From Escherichia phage ime09: a stretch of DNA of 64,000 nt. A model generated the notes under the pieces. The model had not been told where the DNA came from and made no database searches. It worked only from the letters and a program-made list of their open reading frames with translations. Made by a program: the position numbers and the translations under genes. Position 1 is the stretch's first letter; every line of letters starts with the position of its first letter. Positions 22,411-30,211 of the stretch are shown piece by piece. Location: sequence record NC_019503.1, one strand, 5' to 3'.

Positions 22411-22413
22411 CAA

Positions 22414-22438
22414 TGGGGACCGAAAGGTCCCCATATTT
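22414..22438. terminator. Bidirectional terminator after gene 54
   Basis: tggggacc gaaa ggtcccca tattttt between convergent genes. Confidence 0.7.
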
Positions 22439-22729
22439 TTATTTACGGAATGAAATAAAAGCAGCAACTGAAGCAACTAGACTGTCTTCAATATAAACTT
22501 CAATTTTTACCGGAGCTTCTGACTCAAATTTACCTGTTACTACACCCTGGAAAATGCTTTCAGTCTGTTCTGGCTTTAAAAAATTTTCAGAAGGAAAAAT
22601 TCCGAACTTTTTATCTGTTCCAAAAATTTTGATAAATTCATCATAAACTGCTTCATTAAAAGCGTTATCAGCAGGAATAACGCCTTCAACTACAAGTTCT
22701 TGACCTAAAAAGCGTAAAGAAGATTTCAT
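22439..22729 (-). CDS. Hypothetical protein, 96 aa (alt-downstream small gene)
   Basis: ORF with GAGGA SD 7 nt upstream of ATG; has its own early-type promoter. Confidence 0.6.
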   Translation of the reverse strand: MKSSLRFLGQELVVEGVIPADNAFNEAVYDEFIKIFGTDKKFGIFPSENFLKPEQTESIFQGVVTGKFESEAPVKIEVYIEDSLVASVAAFISFRK

Positions 22730-22754: not shown

Positions 22755-22792
22755 AAAACTATTGTAACACAACACGAGGGACTTGTAAACTA
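22755..22792 (-). promoter_or_regulatory. Early sigma70-type promoter TTTACA-17-TACAAT with extended -10 TG
   Basis: Minus strand: -35 plus 22784-22789, -10 plus 22761-22766; drives the 96 aa ORF. Confidence 0.5.
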
Positions 22793-24847
22793 CATCTTGA
22801 ACTTTTTAGACATTCCGTTGATGTTAACCAAAGAAGCCAAGATTTGAGAAACTTCGTTTTCCTCTTCTTTTGATTCTTCTACAAGGAATTGATTAAACCC
22901 AGCCATTGGACGAACTTCACCAGTTTCCATTAGATGATCGCCATCATATACCGATTCTTCTAATTGTTCAGAAGGAGGAACGATTGTGCCTTCGATTAGA
23001 TACTTGTTATAAGCAGTTTCTTTCATCATGTACGTGCTTACTTTATTAATCTTCAACAAAATTCCACGCGGTAGAATAACTTCAGCTTCTGATGGAAATC
23101 CTGATAAATGACCTGGAACGATAACTTTGATTCGCTCAGCCCCTTTAATTACCATACCTACGCTAGTTTCAGCATCTTCATTAGCATATGCAGAATGACT
23201 ACCCATATGCATTAAATCTTCAGCATCAACAGAACCTTCTCCTTCACCAGAAAATACTGCACCGGAATCATCTAGAGCCATATAGTTTTTACCATGCTCA
23301 CCGAAGATATTTGGTTTAAGCGATGTTGATACGAAGTTCTTGAAATAGAACATTTTATTTTCAATATTATGGCGTAAAGTTTTAAAAGTAACTTCTTGTC
23401 CACGATAAAGCGTAGTTCCTGGAGGAAGAACTGATCCTTTTGCGAATGCAGAATCCAGCGTCTCGATGTGTTTAATAGCTCGTTCCATGTATTCTTCACG
23501 GGTAGAATCTGGTTTACCCAAGAGGAACGAGTTCATTTCAACATATGAATCTGCACAATAATCTTCAATTACATCAGACTCAGCCTGAGTCAGTCCTTTT
23601 GGAGTTACTTCGGTGCTTGCGTATTCATATGCCTGAGCAGCAGATTCATTAATCAATTTATAAATGCCATTCATGACAAATTGAATAATAGCTACTTTTT
23701 CGTCTGGCGTGGCTTTAGAACCTTTAACTAAATCATTGATAATTTTCTTAATAACATCAAAGCTATTAGAAATATTAATGTCAGCGAGATCGCTCAAAAT
23801 TTTATCGGTTTTATAATCAAAAAATTCTTTATTCTTTAAATATTCTTGAGAACCTTGATGTGTTATATCGCTCTGCAGTCTGATAGACGGATCACGTAAA
23901 CGTGCATGGGCCAATGCAATATGATTTCGGAAGCTTTCTAGTTCATAATCGTTAGATTTAAAACGAGAAGCACTTCTCATACCACCGATAGCTCCTTTGC
24001 CGAAGTTTGAACCAATCTGAATAACGCCAGAGTTCATTGGTCCTTCTGCTTTATATACCGGAACTTTAGATTCAAACTCTTGATATTTCTTGGCAGCGAA
24101 GCTATCACCCTGAAGTGAAGCATCGACAGTAGAATATTGAGCTTGTGCTGCTAATCGACGACTAATTTTAGTTTTCTGAATAACAGCTTGATCCGTGCGC
24201 TTATCATTTTCTAAGGCAATAGAAGCAGCAACAGCAACAGCTTTAGGAACAGCATTACCTGTTTTAACATCTACATAAACATCACCAACCTTTGATTCAA
24301 CTTTTGTGAATAACTCAGTTGAAATAGGAGGTACACCTGGAATGTCTTCTAAATTGGCATTTTTACGGTAAACCATAATATATGCATACTTTTTATCATA
24401 ATCCCAGATTTCCTTTAAAAGAACATATCGACCTGCTCCTTTAGTACGTACTAAACGGTCAGCAATAACTTGCATTTGACGAGCAGCGCCATTTGTTTTA
24501 CTTTTTAGTACGCGGAATAGGCATGCGTCAATTTTATACTGTTTCATTGTTTGAAGAGCAGTATCAAAAACCGCATTAATGACACCAATTGGATTTCCAC
24601 CCAAGTTTTTAAGTTTAACGAGCGATAGTTTCTCATTGACACCTATCATTACGATATGCATCATTTTATCGCCTGGCTTAACGTTTTTATTTGTATCACC
24701 GCCAGAGGTGTATGTACAAAATCTAAATCCAGGAAGCACACTTTCTTCGCCGGCTTGAATAGCAAAAATTTGAGGTATTTTATGCTTAGGATTTAAGTTA
24801 ACAACCGGCGCCGAAGCGCCGTCAAATAATTCTGTAATAAGTTCCAT
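22790..24847 (-). CDS. Alt-like ADP-ribosyltransferase paralogue (685 aa)
   Basis: N-terminal ~200 aa nearly identical to Alt (MELITELFD...); C-terminal region retains R / S-T-S / E-x-E motifs (YRGQ, FVSTSL, SEAEVILPRG). Confidence 0.85.
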   Translation of the reverse strand: MELITELFDGASAPVVNLNPKHKIPQIFAIQAGEESVLPGFRFCTYTSGGDTNKNVKPGDKMMHIVMIGVNEKLSLVKLKNLGGNPIGVINAVFDTALQTMKQYKIDACLFRVLKSKTNGAARQMQVIADRLVRTKGAGRYVLLKEIWDYDKKYAYIMVYRKNANLEDIPGVPPISTELFTKVESKVGDVYVDVKTGNAVPKAVAVAASIALENDKRTDQAVIQKTKISRRLAAQAQYSTVDASLQGDSFAAKKYQEFESKVPVYKAEGPMNSGVIQIGSNFGKGAIGGMRSASRFKSNDYELESFRNHIALAHARLRDPSIRLQSDITHQGSQEYLKNKEFFDYKTDKILSDLADINISNSFDVIKKIINDLVKGSKATPDEKVAIIQFVMNGIYKLINESAAQAYEYASTEVTPKGLTQAESDVIEDYCADSYVEMNSFLLGKPDSTREEYMERAIKHIETLDSAFAKGSVLPPGTTLYRGQEVTFKTLRHNIENKMFYFKNFVSTSLKPNIFGEHGKNYMALDDSGAVFSGEGEGSVDAEDLMHMGSHSAYANEDAETSVGMVIKGAERIKVIVPGHLSGFPSEAEVILPRGILLKINKVSTYMMKETAYNKYLIEGTIVPPSEQLEESVYDGDHLMETGEVRPMAGFNQFLVEESKEEENEVSQILASLVNINGMSKKFKM

Positions 24848-24850
24848 GAT

Positions 24851-26944
24851 TTATCCTTGAACGAACTTGTAAGGCATGTTTGTAATATCTATGCAAGACG
24901 CAATAATTCCAAGAGATGATTCTACTTTTTGTTTAACATTTGATGAAACAAATGATGCAAAGTCAACTCTGTCTTCTATTTCAATATCACCTGTCATTGC
25001 AACTACTTCACCAGTTTCCATTAGACGGTCACCGTCATAAATTACTGATTCGGTGAGTTCTTCCGTAGTCATAACTTCAGCTTGAATGAGTTTTGTATTA
25101 TTAGATGTTGTTCCGTCGTTATTAGAAGCATCAGTTATTTTATTGACTTTGACCATCAATCCGCGTGGTAGAATAACTTCAGCTTCTGTTGCTATTCCGA
25201 GACTTCCTGGATATACAACATTAACTTTATGAGCTCCATCAATTGCCCATCCTATTTGAACTTTAACGTATTCAGGATTTTCTTTATACGCTCTTATTTC
25301 ATTTGGATTAATAGTTATTCCTTCTTCATTTTTATCAACTGTCAATTCATTACGAGCTTCTGGTTCTAAAAGACCAATACCAGCATGTGTAATTCCAAAA
25401 CGTCCAAAAATGATAGGAGTTAAAGAAGTAGATACAAAATTTCTGAAATAGAACACTTTATTTTTAACTAGTGCTTCGTATATAGGAGCAGTCATGCTTT
25501 GAGCACGATAAACTGTAATGCCTTCTGGTATACGGTCACCGTTTTCAAAAGCTGAATCTAAGTTATTTATAGCAGATTCAATTTCTTTTTCACTCATTAC
25601 ATCATATCGTTCTGGATTGTAACGACCCAAAAGAAGATTATTGATGTCAGTATATCCTGAACCACAATACTCTCTAATGCCGCGCTTTTGTGATGGAGTA
25701 TATTTAGAACCATCACGGGCAATAGTAATATCAATCATTGGACCTGCACCAATTCCAGAAAAGCTATAAATCATTCGTTTGAGGAATTTAGTTTTTGCTG
25801 CGTTCCAGGAATTTTTAGTTATTTCTTCCCAGACTTCATCTGGCTGTCCTTTACGGGTTTTATTATGTTTATCAAGCCAATTATCTTTATATTCTTCAAA
25901 GAATTGATTAACGGCTGCTGCGTATTTCTCCAAACATTTTATTGAAGTAGTTGGTTCATTTTTAATCGCATTAAGAATTACATCTTTAATTTTTTCAGAA
26001 ACTTCATTAACCTCACTTTTTGAAAAGAATTTATAATCATAGTGAAGTTCATCTGCAGTTCCTTCGGCAATGATTTTTGCTGCCTTAGTTTTAGAAGCTA
26101 ATGAATTAATTCCAAGCTTCATTTCTTCTGCTTCGGGAATTAAAGGAGCTGTAGCAGGTTTATTGAAATTAGCTGCGGTAGATTCATACTTTTGGAATAA
26201 TTCACTTTCAAATCTAGAAGATTCCAATGACTGACTTTGTGCAATTGCTCTGCGGGAAATTTTAACTTTAACGATTACAGCTTGGTCAGAACGTTTATCG
26301 TTTTCTTGTGCAATAGATGCTGCAATTGCCTCATTTTTAGTTACTTGAGCTCCAGTATCTTTATTGATATAAACATCACCGACCTTCGATTCAACTTTAG
26401 TAAAGAGCTCGGTACTGATTTCCGGAACTCCTGGAATGTCTTCTAATGATACATTTTTGCGATGTATAAGAATATATGCATACTTTTTATCGTAATCCCA
26501 GAGTTCCTTAAGAAGGACGTATCTGCCGCCTGAACGGCTGCGGATAAGTCTATCAGCAATAACTTGAATTTGTCGAGCTTGACCAGCAGTTTTAGACTTA
26601 AGAATACGAAGCATACAGGCATCAATTTTATACTGACGCATTGTTTGCATTGCAACAGTAAAAACTGAATTGATGTAATTAATTGGGCTTGGACCGAGAC
26701 CTTTCAATTTAGCAATTGAACCTTTAGCAGTTAATGTAAAAGGAACAATATGCATCATTTTATCACCCATCTTTAAATCGCGATTAGTATCACCTCCAGA
26801 TGTATAGGTACATAAACGAAAGCCTGGTTGTTCAATTGCGTCATCAACATGAACTGAAAAAATTTGCGGTATTTTCTTCTTTGGATTTAAGTTTGTAATC
26901 GGAAGAGTAGTATCTTCGTCAAATAATTCTGTAATGAGTTCCAT
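24851..26944 (-). CDS. alt: Alt ADP-ribosyltransferase (virion-packaged)
   Basis: 697 aa from second Met (SD GAGG better spaced); R-S-E motifs YRAQ, FVSTSL, TEAEVILPRG; TATAAATA upstream. Confidence 0.9.
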   Translation of the reverse strand: MELITELFDEDTTLPITNLNPKKKIPQIFSVHVDDAIEQPGFRLCTYTSGGDTNRDLKMGDKMMHIVPFTLTAKGSIAKLKGLGPSPINYINSVFTVAMQTMRQYKIDACMLRILKSKTAGQARQIQVIADRLIRSRSGGRYVLLKELWDYDKKYAYILIHRKNVSLEDIPGVPEISTELFTKVESKVGDVYINKDTGAQVTKNEAIAASIAQENDKRSDQAVIVKVKISRRAIAQSQSLESSRFESELFQKYESTAANFNKPATAPLIPEAEEMKLGINSLASKTKAAKIIAEGTADELHYDYKFFSKSEVNEVSEKIKDVILNAIKNEPTTSIKCLEKYAAAVNQFFEEYKDNWLDKHNKTRKGQPDEVWEEITKNSWNAAKTKFLKRMIYSFSGIGAGPMIDITIARDGSKYTPSQKRGIREYCGSGYTDINNLLLGRYNPERYDVMSEKEIESAINNLDSAFENGDRIPEGITVYRAQSMTAPIYEALVKNKVFYFRNFVSTSLTPIIFGRFGITHAGIGLLEPEARNELTVDKNEEGITINPNEIRAYKENPEYVKVQIGWAIDGAHKVNVVYPGSLGIATEAEVILPRGLMVKVNKITDASNNDGTTSNNTKLIQAEVMTTEELTESVIYDGDRLMETGEVVAMTGDIEIEDRVDFASFVSSNVKQKVESSLGIIASCIDITNMPYKFVQG

Positions 26945-26967
26945 CATATCCTCTCTAGTGTTTATTC

Positions 26968-26975
26968 TATTTATA
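26968..26975 (-). promoter_or_regulatory. Late promoter box TATAAATA for alt
   Basis: Plus TATTTATA = minus TATAAATA, about 20 nt upstream of alt ATG. Confidence 0.5.
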
Positions 26976-26980
26976 AAATT

Positions 26981-26998
26981 AAAGGCCCGAAGGCCTTT
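26981..26998 (-). terminator. Hairpin between 62 aa ORF and alt
   Basis: aaaggcc cgaa ggccttt overlapping the stop codon. Confidence 0.45.
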
Positions 26999-27185
26999 AA
27001 TAATCTATTGGTAAGAGAGTACGGTATATTTCAAACTTTGGACCTTTTTCGTAGGCATCAAATGTTTCTGTGAATTTATTATAAGCATACGCATCTATAA
27101 ATTCAATCATAATTTGTGATACAGAAGTAGAAACATCTCCACCTTCTTTTTGAGCCACGACAATTGTTTCTAAATAAGCTTTCAT
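26997..27185 (-). CDS. Hypothetical protein, 62 aa
   Basis: ORF with ATGA overlap to DNA ligase stop. Confidence 0.5.
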   Translation of the reverse strand: MKAYLETIVVAQKEGGDVSTSVSQIMIEFIDAYAYNKFTETFDAYEKGPKFEIYRTLLPIDY

Positions 27186-28645
27186 AGACCAGTTACCTCA
27201 TGAAAATCACCAAATACATCCTCGAATGTATTAGCTTTAGTTTTATCTTCACGTAAACGAATCGCAATCGGAAGAAATAATTTAACGTAATCAGTGCGGC
27301 CATCAGATTTTAACCAACCGTTGCATTCGCACTCTAGAATTTTTCCAATATAATAATTTTGGTTTTCCATAATGCGAGTACGGTCAAGTTCATGTGATTT
27401 TACACCGGCTTTATCTTTTAAGCCTGAACCAGCATTTACTTTAATTTTTCCACACTCTGATTCAAGAATAAATCCACCTGCTTTGGTAGGGTCTTTACGG
27501 TGAGGATAAATTCCTACAATTTTTAAATCAACATCAATTACTTCTTTAAATTTATAAAGATTTTTTGAACGAGCATTTTCCCACAATCCATCGGTATTTT
27601 TGAGAATAATACCTTCAAGACCTTGGTCAATATACTTTTTATAAATTACCTTAGCTTCATCTAGGTTATTTACTACCTGGTTTTCAATTAAAATTACTTT
27701 ATCATATCCTGATGTCATTTGTTCTAGTTTAGAAAAACGCACATCATATTTTAAACGAAACGCCGGAAGACCATATATTTCTACCAACGGAACATAATCC
27801 CAGACCTGAAACTTCATGCATTGAGCTTCTTTTTCAGAAATGGTTCCTTTTAAGGATTTATTGGCGATTCCATTAGAAGTAGTACGAGATTCCGCTACTT
27901 CGGCGAATTCTTTAGCTTTACTAATTTCAGGATAAGCATCAAAAAGAAAATCTAGGCCTTCTGGTTCCTTTTTAACTTGCTCGTGGTATACCAATTCGCC
28001 ATCAATTAACACACCTTCTGGATGAATCTGGCGGGCTTCAGCAGTCATTTTGATTAATTCTTCCTTAAGAAGATCTAATCCTAGATATTCATTACCAGCT
28101 CGTGATAAAAGACGAACATCATCTAATTCATCGCCTCTAACTTCAGCAAAACACCGGGCTCCATCTGCTTTTAACTGTGCAAAGGCTGGAAATTTGATAT
28201 TCTTACTAATGCCCTTTTCATCATAAGAACTTGCCAGCATTTGAGGTTGTTCAGGAATTAAACCTGGCCAAACTTTGTTTGCAATAGATACTGAAGCACC
28301 GCATTCAAGGTCTCGCATCATCACTCGACGCAAAACTTCAACATCATCCTTTTTACCATCGGTGATATATCCAGTTAATTCCTCAATTGCAGCATTTCCG
28401 GTCAATTTCCGAGTAGCTAACGTGAATTCAATGAAGTCAAGCATATCGGTAATAGTCAGCATTCCAAAACTCTGGGTAGCAATATCAGGTTTAGGCCATT
28501 TCTTGATATAATACTGTAACCCACGAGAATAAGTCAGACGATATACCCGTTTAAGCAATTCATTATCTTTATTCTTTTCAAGAATTGCTTGCTTCTGCTT
28601 AGTTGATCCAATAGATGCTATTTCATTCAGAATTTTAAGAATCAT
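27182..28645 (-). CDS. 30: ATP-dependent DNA ligase gp30
   Basis: 487 aa as T4 DNA ligase; adenylation Lys motif region (KADGAR) present. Confidence 0.95.
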   Translation of the reverse strand: MILKILNEIASIGSTKQKQAILEKNKDNELLKRVYRLTYSRGLQYYIKKWPKPDIATQSFGMLTITDMLDFIEFTLATRKLTGNAAIEELTGYITDGKKDDVEVLRRVMMRDLECGASVSIANKVWPGLIPEQPQMLASSYDEKGISKNIKFPAFAQLKADGARCFAEVRGDELDDVRLLSRAGNEYLGLDLLKEELIKMTAEARQIHPEGVLIDGELVYHEQVKKEPEGLDFLFDAYPEISKAKEFAEVAESRTTSNGIANKSLKGTISEKEAQCMKFQVWDYVPLVEIYGLPAFRLKYDVRFSKLEQMTSGYDKVILIENQVVNNLDEAKVIYKKYIDQGLEGIILKNTDGLWENARSKNLYKFKEVIDVDLKIVGIYPHRKDPTKAGGFILESECGKIKVNAGSGLKDKAGVKSHELDRTRIMENQNYYIGKILECECNGWLKSDGRTDYVKLFLPIAIRLREDKTKANTFEDVFGDFHEVTGL

Positions 28646-28911: not shown

Positions 28912-29750
28912 TAGAATGCTCCTTGGAAAATATTATCACCACAAGTAGGTCTATTATACAAATACTCTATGCCACCAGGTTTAATATAGTTCCATGTCTG
29001 AAACGGATGTGTCTGATATGGATGATATAGATGATTATAAGGATTAAACCCAGGCGTTCTCCAGGTAGTGTTCCAACGAAAAGAATCGTTTTTAACCATC
29101 TTCTCAATTAAATCTTTTATAGCTTTTTCACTATCAAAACTTTCTTTATTTTCCTTCGGCGAAAAAAGCTTATTTTCTACATCATTCCATGTATAAACTC
29201 GCTGCGCAGTTTTTGGAATATTGTCACGCTCTCCTCGAGCCATCCAATAAACAGGAACATTTAATATTTCACTAGCATGATCGCAGTGATGAGCGAGATC
29301 GTCAATATAACAAATTACGTTATATTTCTCTTTTGCCTTTTTGAACAACTCTTCTTTTGAAGAATCATGACCGCACATCATTACTTCCGAGAAGGCACCA
29401 GGAAAAAGAGCATTCAAATTAAATTGACGATTCAACAGAGCGTCAATAGAATCACCCAATGCTGTAACAGCTACAAAATTATAATCTTCTTTTAATTTGT
29501 TAATTACACACAGGGCATCTTTATATGGAGACAAGTAACGAATAAAATCTGATCGATTGTATTTTTCAATTAGCTTGACACCAAGTTCTTCATCACAGTT
29601 AAATAGTTTACCTGGAGAAATAAATTTCTCATCTTGGATCATTTTTAAAATATGTTCTAACGGAAGATTATATTTCTGAGCAAAATAAGGAAGACCTGAT
29701 TGCCAGCTTAAACATACTCCATCAATATCAGTTAAAATAGTAGGCTTCAT
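28911..29750 (-). CDS. HAD-like hydrolase family protein, 279 aa (T4 30.2 position)
   Basis: N-terminal DxDG motif (LTDIDGV) typical of HAD phosphatases. Confidence 0.7.
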   Translation of the reverse strand: MKPTILTDIDGVCLSWQSGLPYFAQKYNLPLEHILKMIQDEKFISPGKLFNCDEELGVKLIEKYNRSDFIRYLSPYKDALCVINKLKEDYNFVAVTALGDSIDALLNRQFNLNALFPGAFSEVMMCGHDSSKEELFKKAKEKYNVICYIDDLAHHCDHASEILNVPVYWMARGERDNIPKTAQRVYTWNDVENKLFSPKENKESFDSEKAIKDLIEKMVKNDSFRWNTTWRTPGFNPYNHLYHPYQTHPFQTWNYIKPGGIEYLYNRPTCGDNIFQGAF

Positions 29751-30211
29751 AGAGAGTCTCTTAATAGGTTTAACACATCAATAAATTCAGCTTCGGTTAG
29801 TATTGTATCATCTTTTGTTAGACCACTAGCCATGCTGTGCTTCAAAACTTTTCCTTTCGAGGCTTGTAATGCATCGCGAAAGCCCCTGTTTTGGAACGCT
29901 GCTTCAAAATATGCATTTGTGTATAATTCTTTCCACGCTGGAGAGTATCTTGAAAACGGAACTCCAAGCCAGAAGAGGGTCCCACGGTCCTGAGCTCTAG
30001 CATAAGCTCGTCCAGCTTGTTGGGCAGCAAGCCCGGATAACCCAAATATACGACGTTGCTGTTCAACATTTTTCACCTTACACCCTTGGAGGAATCCTTC
30101 GAGACCTCCAAATTGGATACCATCCATAACAAAAGGCCATTGGGCGAAATTACTTAGTGCGCATGATGGCCATCTAAAATTGCTTCTTATCTCTAACTCA
30201 GACATTTTCAA
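29747..30211 (-). CDS. NADAR (YbiA-like, DUF1768) domain protein, 154 aa (T4 30.3 position)
   Basis: Motif LSNF-x3-PF...G-x2-F-x2-E-x-F-x-Q-x-K near N-terminus matches NADAR family pattern. Confidence 0.72.
   Translation of the reverse strand: MKMSELEIRSNFRWPSCALSNFAQWPFVMDGIQFGGLEGFLQGCKVKNVEQQRRIFGLSGLAAQQAGRAYARAQDRGTLFWLGVPFSRYSPAWKELYTNAYFEAAFQNRGFRDALQASKGKVLKHSMASGLTKDDTILTEAEFIDVLNLLRDSL

Follow-up and report, generated by a model that had tools for sequence, protein, structure and literature searches.

The tandem ADP-ribosyltransferase genes of Escherichia phage ime09 as the standard alt-alt2 locus of T-even phages

The stretch of Escherichia phage ime09 analysed here (64,000 nucleotides (nt) of NC_019503.1; hereafter the window) carries on its minus strand two adjacent genes for Alt-family ADP-ribosyltransferases (ARTs), which an earlier reading of the DNA (the original prediction) had singled out as possibly special to this phage. 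Compared with related genomes, the pair is the normal and already known alt-alt2 (altA-altB) locus of T-even phages. It is very likely, in our judgement, that the whole explanation holds, namely a standard locus whose products are made late, packaged, injected and aimed at different targets, with alt2 lost in T4. The pair appeared odd because T4, a deletion derivative, had been taken as the reference. The two open reading frames, of 698 or 697 and 685 amino acids (aa) with a gap of exactly 3 nt, lie where they were first placed:

24851..26944, minus strand: alt (altA or "Alt"), 697 aa when read from MELITE, orthologue of T4 alt by position
22790..24847, minus strand: alt2 (altB or "Alt2"), 685 aa, full-length form of the T4 alt.-1/alt.-2 gene

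An in-frame ATG one codon 5′ of the first gene (26947) gives the 698-aa form of Alt, and the second ATG is the MELITE start annotated in T4. The minus-strand gene order is gp30 DNA ligase, alt.1, alt, alt2 and alt.-3, and the block converges on the plus-strand gp54, which is also the order in T4. The pair therefore lies between gp30 ligase/alt.1 on one side and alt.-3/gp54 on the other.

The window is a segment of a Tequatrovirus genome, and its 5-kb stretch around alt/alt2 shares 98.4% identity with Shigella phage ESh26 and with phage IME339. This stretch is matched by 542 phage records, 355 of which hold at least 80% of it, and Alt2 is encoded at an amino acid identity of at least 80% in 401 records (at least 90% in 400). 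Both T2 (AP018813) and T6 (MH550421) have the 697- plus 685-aa pair with the genes 3 nt apart. Together with Bas37 (Escherichia phage KarlGJung of the BASEL collection, MZ501089) and about 400 other Tequatrovirus records, they contain both full-length paralogues, so that the unusualness implied for the pair does not hold; of about 500 related phage records, roughly 400 have the pair. According to the original prediction, the same two paralogues in relatives would make the locus ordinary. This is essentially what was found, and Dhakavirus IME08 and Gaprivervirus SP18 also have the two genes (alta/altb). RB69 has one copy at the locus, and Aeromonas phage 44RR2.8t (L005 4040..8908) has two full copies and a third, partial one of 319 aa; thus, ART genes have been gained and lost repeatedly at the alt locus across the Straboviridae. 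Alt paralogues were already listed by Nolan et al. in 2006 (PMC1524935). The pair as such is not a new finding, as hundreds of genomes carry it in their annotation under the names alt_1/alt_2, alta/altb or Alt/Alt2.

T4 does have a single full-length alt, as stated in the original prediction, with alt.-1 and alt.-2 being only remnants; it is, however, a derived exception from which alt2 has been mostly deleted, and not the reference state. These remnants have been known since about the time of the T4 genome paper. The first 117 codons of alt2 are collinear with, and nearly identical to, T4 alt.-1/alt.-2 (NP_049810, NP_049809), and alt2 outscores alt against the short PHROGs 23015 and 15247 (61 and 67 positions). 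DNA alignment, repeat mapping and protein alignment all identified alt2 as the orthologue of the T4 fragments. T4 carries two lesions relative to alt2: (i) a 1-nt deletion in an A-run, causing a frameshift that splits alt.-1 from alt.-2, and (ii) a loss of 1,699 bp bounded by 9-bp direct repeats, both of which are still present in the window:

24500..24508, minus strand: upstream copy of CTAAAAAGT, left end-point of the deletion that made T4 alt.-2
22801..22809, minus strand: downstream copy of CTAAAAAGT at a distance of 1,699 bp, where the T4 deletion ends on the right

One CTAAAAAGT is retained in T4 (L001 5105..5113), after which translation passes the old alt2 stop out of frame and continues into VPRVVL. 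Because of this frameshift and the repeat-mediated deletion, T4 alt.-1/alt.-2 are, judged by alignment, the remnants of alt2, and the T4 state is derived. A probe across the T4 deletion junction matched 497 records, 91 of which had the T4-type junction contiguous, and the comparison shows a loss of alt2, by frameshift plus repeat-mediated 1.7-kb deletion, in T4 and its closest kin. This mapping refines the T4 GenBank note, in which alt.-1/alt.-2 are an "old duplication of the first part of gene alt". It disagrees with the T6 record, which notes an "apparent insertion in alt.-2". We rejected an insertion in the other phages because the 1.7 kb completes an Alt-family protein in frame, T4 has the frameshift in addition, and altb is full length in the outgroup genera.

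The assignment of both genes to the Alt-family, arginine-type ARTs, made in the original prediction, is borne out by profile matches. Pfam PF03496 (ADPrib_exo_Tox) matched alt at E 1.9e-37 and alt2 at E 3e-20, with scores of 129 and 72.7 bits, respectively, above the gathering cut-off of 23.4. PHROG 802 ("Alt-like RNA polymerase ADP-ribosyltransferase") matched residues 1-697 of 698 in alt (E 6.8e-273) and 1-685 of 685 in alt2 (E 7.9e-256), and the two proteins align with each other by BLASTP at 41% identity (E 3e-162). An NCBIfam scan of both proteins matched no family. The R, STS and ExE motifs are kept in both C-terminal regions, as originally noted: YRAQ479/STS505/EAEVILPRG587 in alt (R480, S505, S507, E587, E589) and YRGQ481/STS507/EAEVILPRG587 in alt2 (R482, S507, S509, E587, E589). 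These five catalytic residues (R, S, S, E, E) were invariant in a 22-sequence family alignment, and YR and ExE align with CdtA.

The AlphaFold model of Alt2 (mean predicted local distance difference test (pLDDT) score 74.6) has an alpha/beta N-terminal domain at aa ~12-225, a helical region at aa ~230-470, an ART core and a disordered tail at aa 629-685 (pLDDT < 50). The model of Alt also has the alpha/beta domain at aa ~12-225, and in both models the segment between STS and ExE is a low-confidence insertion of ~50-70 aa. The ART fold of Alt2 relates it to structures in the PDB by fold comparison only, and phmmer, run with Alt2 on the sequences of the PDB at E <= 1, gave no match. The two proteins, of ~76-78 kDa, are built alike: the alpha/beta domain at the N-terminus is followed by a helical region, the mono-ADP-ribosyltransferase domain of the C3/VIP2 type (R-S-ExE) and a disordered tail. 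The corresponding segments of the genes are as follows:

26231..26944, minus strand: alt N-terminal alpha/beta domain, aa 1-238, with the MELITE|L site of the gp21 prohead protease (E6); from T4 identity and AlphaFold
24134..24847, minus strand: alt2 N-terminal alpha/beta domain, aa 1-238, with the MELITE|L gp21 site
25055..25684, minus strand: alt catalytic (ART) cassette, aa 421-630, near-identical in DNA to Dhakavirus IME08 alta
22988..23602, minus strand: alt2 catalytic (ART) domain, aa ~416-620, with R482, S507-T-S509 and E587-A-E589
24854..25015, minus strand: alt C-terminal tail, aa 644-697, after DGDxLME|TGE; L/I-x-E at E632 and E643; pLDDT < 50
22793..22924, minus strand: alt2 C-terminal tail, aa 642-685, after DGDHLME|TGE; L/I-x-E at E619, E631, E641 and E657

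A Pfam scan of the isolated N-terminal 237 aa, with a model set that did not contain PF26846, returned nothing at E <= 10. In precomputed annotations, PF26846 stands together with PF03496 on all full-length Alt-family homologues (P0001-P0120) and is missing from the N-terminally truncated ones, and it seems that a curated Pfam family for the N-terminal Alt domain exists.

The two copies are far less alike than had been supposed. Their N-termini, described in the original prediction as near-identical, share 68% of residues over ~238 aa (62-77% per 60-aa block) and 63-70% of nucleotides, with saturated synonymous sites (synonymous divergence, dS, of 1.2-2.1) and a ratio of nonsynonymous to synonymous divergence (dN/dS) of 0.11-0.24; the exact MELITE|LFD N-terminus is present in alt2. 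Strong divergence in the middle was correctly noted (16-19% identity over aa 239-400), and the STS-to-ExE segment is 15% identical. In view of this dS, the duplication is to be read as old, and the N-terminal similarity as kept by selection; recent gene conversion as its source is ruled out. Among the window, Bas37, T2 and T6, dN/dS was 0.018-0.050 for alt2 and 0.011-0.047 for alt, which shows that both copies are kept by strong purifying selection.

Comparison by domain with IME08 showed that different parts of these proteins have different relationships:

window alt and window alt2: N-terminal 68%, middle 16%, ART 31%, C-terminus 42% identity
IME08 alta and IME08 altb: N-terminal 66%, middle 10%, ART 33%, C-terminus 42%
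window alt and IME08 alta: N-terminal 46%, middle 65%, ART 94%, C-terminus 59%
window alt2 and IME08 altb: N-terminal 45%, middle 46%, ART 54%, C-terminus 65%
window and IME08, all four pairings of alt/alt2 with alta/altb: N-terminal 41-46%

Since the N-terminal domains are 66-68% identical within a genome and 41-46% across genera, they group by genome, whereas the other three parts (middle, ART and C-terminus) follow paralogue type. Codons 421-630 of alt are, per 30-codon window, 90-100% (amino acids), 84-97% (nucleotides) and 63-90% (third positions) identical to IME08 alta, compared with 57-78% nucleotide identity to T4 alt. The flanks of this cassette are only ~50-60% identical to IME08 alta in nucleotides, and the ends of alt are T4-like. 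This contrast between cassette and flanks indicates that the ART cassette of alt was swapped fairly recently between the Dhakavirus and Tequatrovirus lineages. The comparison of alt with T4 Alt, 72% identical overall, has a similar block structure:

aa 1-238: 99-100% identity, dS ~0.14
aa 239-615: 33-75% identity, dS > 1.3 in most blocks
aa 616-697: 94% identity, dS 0.29

The window-type allele of alt is found at an identity of at least 90% in 315 records, including T2, T6 and Bas37, while T4-type and other alleles (60-80% identity) account for 212.

Expression signals at the locus are compatible with late transcription of both genes. The sites read from the sequence are given below:

26968..26975, minus strand: T4-type late promoter box TATAAATA, exact match, directly after the alt.1 terminator hairpin
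26981..26998, minus strand: terminator-like hairpin at the alt.1 end, AAAGGCC-TTCG-GGCCTTT and then AATTTTAT, read from the sequence
25564..25571, minus strand: second exact TATAAATA, within alt (codons Ala-Ile-Asn), a possible internal late promoter or chance
24848..24858, minus strand: alt/alt2 junction, with the stop TAA at 24851-24853, the spacer ATC at 24848-24850 and the alt2 ATG at 24845-24847

The first box lies 21 nt 5′ of the first alt ATG and 24 nt 5′ of the MELITE ATG; late expression is thus indicated by a motif match, and there is no box in the 3-nt gap before alt2. The consensus terminator scan did not call the hairpin at 26981..26998. A late box preceding the upstream copy only had been claimed; the box 5′ of alt was confirmed, and "only" has to be dropped, given the second exact TATAAATA 717 nt 5′ of the alt2 start. 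However, the window holds 18 TATAAATA sites where 9.4 are expected by chance, and T4 alt, which reads AIDNL there, has no counterpart; therefore, the internal box is not interpretable and may well be a chance occurrence. The alt2 Shine-Dalgarno sequence AAGGA (24854-24858) is embedded in the final codons of alt, the T4 alt to alt.-1 junction is the same, and the terminator scan found no minus-strand terminator-like site between alt and alt2. For these reasons, co-transcription of alt and alt2 from the late promoter, as first suggested, is plausible.

Whether Alt2 acts as Alt does can be approached through what is established for T4 Alt, which is located in the capsid and injected with the DNA (PMC9958956, PMC9026906), with ~40 copies packaged per head (PMC9026906, PMC9958956). 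Both its N- and C-terminus are propeptides cleaved by gp21, for which the cleavage motif is L/I-x-E (PMC9026906), so the view that the N-terminus alone directs packaging is not supported. Both window proteins contain MELITE|L and, towards the C-terminus, LTE|S or LEE|S as well as the invariant LME|TGE; DGDxLME|TGE lies ~45-55 residues from the C-terminus and is family-invariant. Cleavage at these predicted sites would leave products of ~68-71 kDa, and the C-terminal tails are probable gp21-removed propeptides by analogy. Because gp21 motifs are retained at each end, where T4 Alt has its propeptide boundaries, Alt and Alt2 are probably both packaged and injected.

The following course of events would fit these features. 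The alt and alt2 genes would be transcribed late from the TATAAATA box 5′ of alt, and alt2 would be translated from the Shine-Dalgarno sequence within the end of alt. If they behave like T4 Alt, both proteins would enter the prohead core, be trimmed by gp21 at MELITE| and ...LME|TGE, be injected with the DNA and then ADP-ribosylate host proteins. Different host targets for Alt and Alt2 are most likely, because their ART domains share only ~31% of residues and hardly any relationship is left in the helical region and the STS-to-ExE loop. Two injected enzymes with distinct targets, as proposed in the original prediction, are a reasonable hypothesis from the divergence of the sequences.

Transposon insertion data are available for Bas37 and T4 in the HIDEN-SEQ preprint (10.1101/2025.11.20.689424), in which T4 alt and Bas37 alt were needed to evade Mokosh type I, and T4 Alt complemented in trans while Bas37 Alt did not. 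This difference fits the different alt alleles of the two phages. Alt2 is not mentioned in the text of the preprint, and its values appear only in the tables, from which the following are taken:

TA sites hit, reference library: Alt2 (bas37_0032) 116/164, "Intermediate"; Alt (bas37_0033) 164/179, "Non-essential"
mean reads, K-12 control: Alt2 44.5; Alt 203.6; neighbours ~170-200
cloned Mokosh type I: Alt2 from 41.6 to 105.3 reads, log2 fold change (log2FC) +1.32, q=0; Alt from 213.1 to 0 reads, log2FC -7.74, q=0
native isolate CFE331: Alt2 log2FC +0.12, not significant; Alt log2FC -1.56, q=0

Bas37 alt.-3, downstream of alt2, was non-essential in the reference library, so the depletion of Alt2 insertions is not attributable to polarity. 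T4 alt.-1 and alt.-2 tolerated insertions (17/17 and 20/20 sites, ~155 reads; same preprint). Taken together, these values suggest a fitness contribution of Alt2 and a functional interaction between the two proteins.

One tentative extension, which we consider rather unlikely as it stands, is that Alt2 is a second capsid-delivered ART with its own targets that competes with Alt for the limited packaging sites in the prohead core (T4 heads hold ~40 copies of Alt). If true, the ratio of the Alt and Alt2 "warheads" would be a tunable trade-off. This would explain why Alt2 insertions are enriched 2.5-fold exactly when Alt is essential against cloned Mokosh type I, why they carry a fitness cost in K-12, and how the T4 lineage might have profited from deleting alt2. 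Combined with a cassette swap on a genus-specific N-terminal domain, it would make the locus a modular effector-delivery platform.

Three other explanations of the pair were weighed against the standard-locus account. Alt2 could be an active ART that is made late and remains unpackaged, acting in the producing cell, e.g., on phage or host proteins during assembly. Its N-terminal domain is just 68% identical to that of Alt, and no Alt2 virion proteomics was found in the literature, as this explanation would allow. It is nevertheless improbable, given that Alt2 has the exact MELITE|LFD and the invariant DGDxLME|TGE, which are gp21 propeptide boundaries in T4 Alt (PMC9026906), that alt2 is a late-promoter gene translationally coupled to alt, and that the N-terminal domains of both paralogues are genome-specific, as expected if they share one prohead core. 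That Alt2 is instead a decaying or catalytically dead duplicate, with T4 having merely finished the decay, might be thought from its loss in T4 and ~90 related records and from its absence among the genes detected as conditionally essential in the clinical isolates examined. Yet the reading frame is intact in ~400 records, dN/dS is 0.02-0.05, the R, STS and ExE residues are invariant with an ART fold predicted, and insertions in the Bas37 gene are partly counter-selected where those in the T4 remnants are neutral. A dead duplicate is therefore very improbable, the selection data having already refuted it for the most part.

A recent, lineage-specific duplication peculiar to ime09 would have followed from a comparison with T4 itself, with its one full-length alt, and nothing else. 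This was rejected, and we give it practically no credence, because synonymous sites between the copies are saturated, the same pair is found in T2, T6, Bas37 and hundreds more, and other genera have alta/altb, with the ART, middle and C-terminal parts grouping by paralogue type. The preferred account, a standard locus encoding two packaged and injected enzymes, has points against it as well. Our literature searches yielded no functional study or virion proteomics of a second Alt paralogue, and no direct evidence of Alt2 virion presence, gp21 cleavage or enzyme activity. Different target specificity is deduced from divergence alone, and the internal TATAAATA at 25564..25571 could give alt2 its own transcript, such that strict co-transcription is not established. 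The "Intermediate" call for Bas37 Alt2 could stem from toxic truncated products rather than the loss of a useful function. Finally, T4 thrives without Alt2, so any Alt2 function is dispensable in the laboratory.

The genes and sites flanking the pair are as follows:

27182..28645, minus strand: gp30 DNA ligase, upstream flank of the locus
26997..27185, minus strand: alt.1, 62 aa, between gp30 ligase and alt
22761..22789, minus strand: sigma-70/T4-early-type promoter TTTACA-17-TACAAT with extended -10 TG, 10 of 12 matches, directly after the alt2 stop
22439..22729, minus strand: alt.-3 (DUF5498), PF17602 at E 1.4e-63, T4 synteny; the minus-strand block ends here
22413..22434, next to alt.-3: bidirectional terminator hairpin, from the terminator scan

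The alt.1 product has a full-length match to PF24647 ("Phage_blade", E 7.5e-29) and also matches PHROG 1976, of unknown function. The promoter at 22761..22789 presumably drives alt.-3, and its strength and early type, directly 3′ of the alt2 stop, make alt.-3 probably an early gene that follows two late ones. The reading frame of alt.-2 in T4 passes through this promoter. Insertions in the Bas37 orthologue of alt.-3 (bas37_0031) were depleted from 169.7 to 25.3 reads (log2FC -2.70, adjusted p 0.020) in the first host-comparison sheet, which by sheet order is K-12 versus uropathogenic E. coli CFT073; no such depletion was seen with CFE331 or with Mokosh. These values hint that alt.-3, a gene of unknown function, has a role specific to certain hosts, possibly in countering a defence. 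Further away, 29747..30211 (minus strand) corresponds to gene 30.3, placed by synteny with T4 alone. In the same preprint (10.1101/2025.11.20.689424), gene 30.3 is named adfN and described as a NADAR enzyme that clears DNA of DarT ADP-ribose. If the open reading frame is adfN, as its synteny would have it, an ADP-ribose "eraser" lies 3 kb from two ADP-ribose "writers".

Essentially all work on Alt has been done in T4, the phage without Alt2, while most T-even phages have Alt2 as a conserved enzyme under strong constraint that is probably injected. The remaining interest of the locus is in the biology of Alt2, the opposite-sign transposon effects under Mokosh type I and the cassette-like evolution of the catalytic domain, whose exchange between genera is an example of the diversification of an injected effector. 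Alt2 is a cheap and well-posed experimental target, because it is conserved and absent from T4, Alt acts allele-specifically against Mokosh type I, and the two genes differ in the sign of their effect.

Compared with known systems, the locus is closest to that of Bas37, which has the same two genes, order, spacing and flanks; "ADP-ribosyltransferase Alt" (bas37_0033) is identical to window alt at 696/698 residues and "ADP-ribosyltransferase Alt2" (bas37_0032) to alt2 at 683/685 (99.7% identity), and nothing of substance differs. Dhakavirus IME08 (JS98 group) and Gaprivervirus SP18 have tandem alta/altb in identical synteny (ligase, alt.1, alta, altb, alt.-3, gp54), although alt.1 is annotated in IME08 and not in SP18. 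T4 Alt (gpAlt, NP_049811) is a head-packaged NAD+:arginine ADP-ribosyltransferase that modifies the alpha subunit of RNA polymerase and other host proteins. It shares with window alt the late promoter context, the R-S-ExE motifs and the gp21 sites, and differs in its central 375 aa (helical region and ART domain), which are a different allele. The Mod proteins of T4 (ModA and ModB) are small (~200 aa), expressed early and not packaged. Iyer et al. (PMC5512222) placed them with Alt in a single Alt/VIP2 clade of R-S-E ARTs. The bacterial R-S-ExE mono-ADP-ribosyltransferase toxins include C3, VIP2, iota Ia, CDTa and Vis; relative to C3/VIP2-type toxins, the phage enzymes have ~410 extra N-terminal residues, a low-confidence insertion of ~50-70 aa between STS and ExE, and a C-terminal capsid-delivery propeptide.

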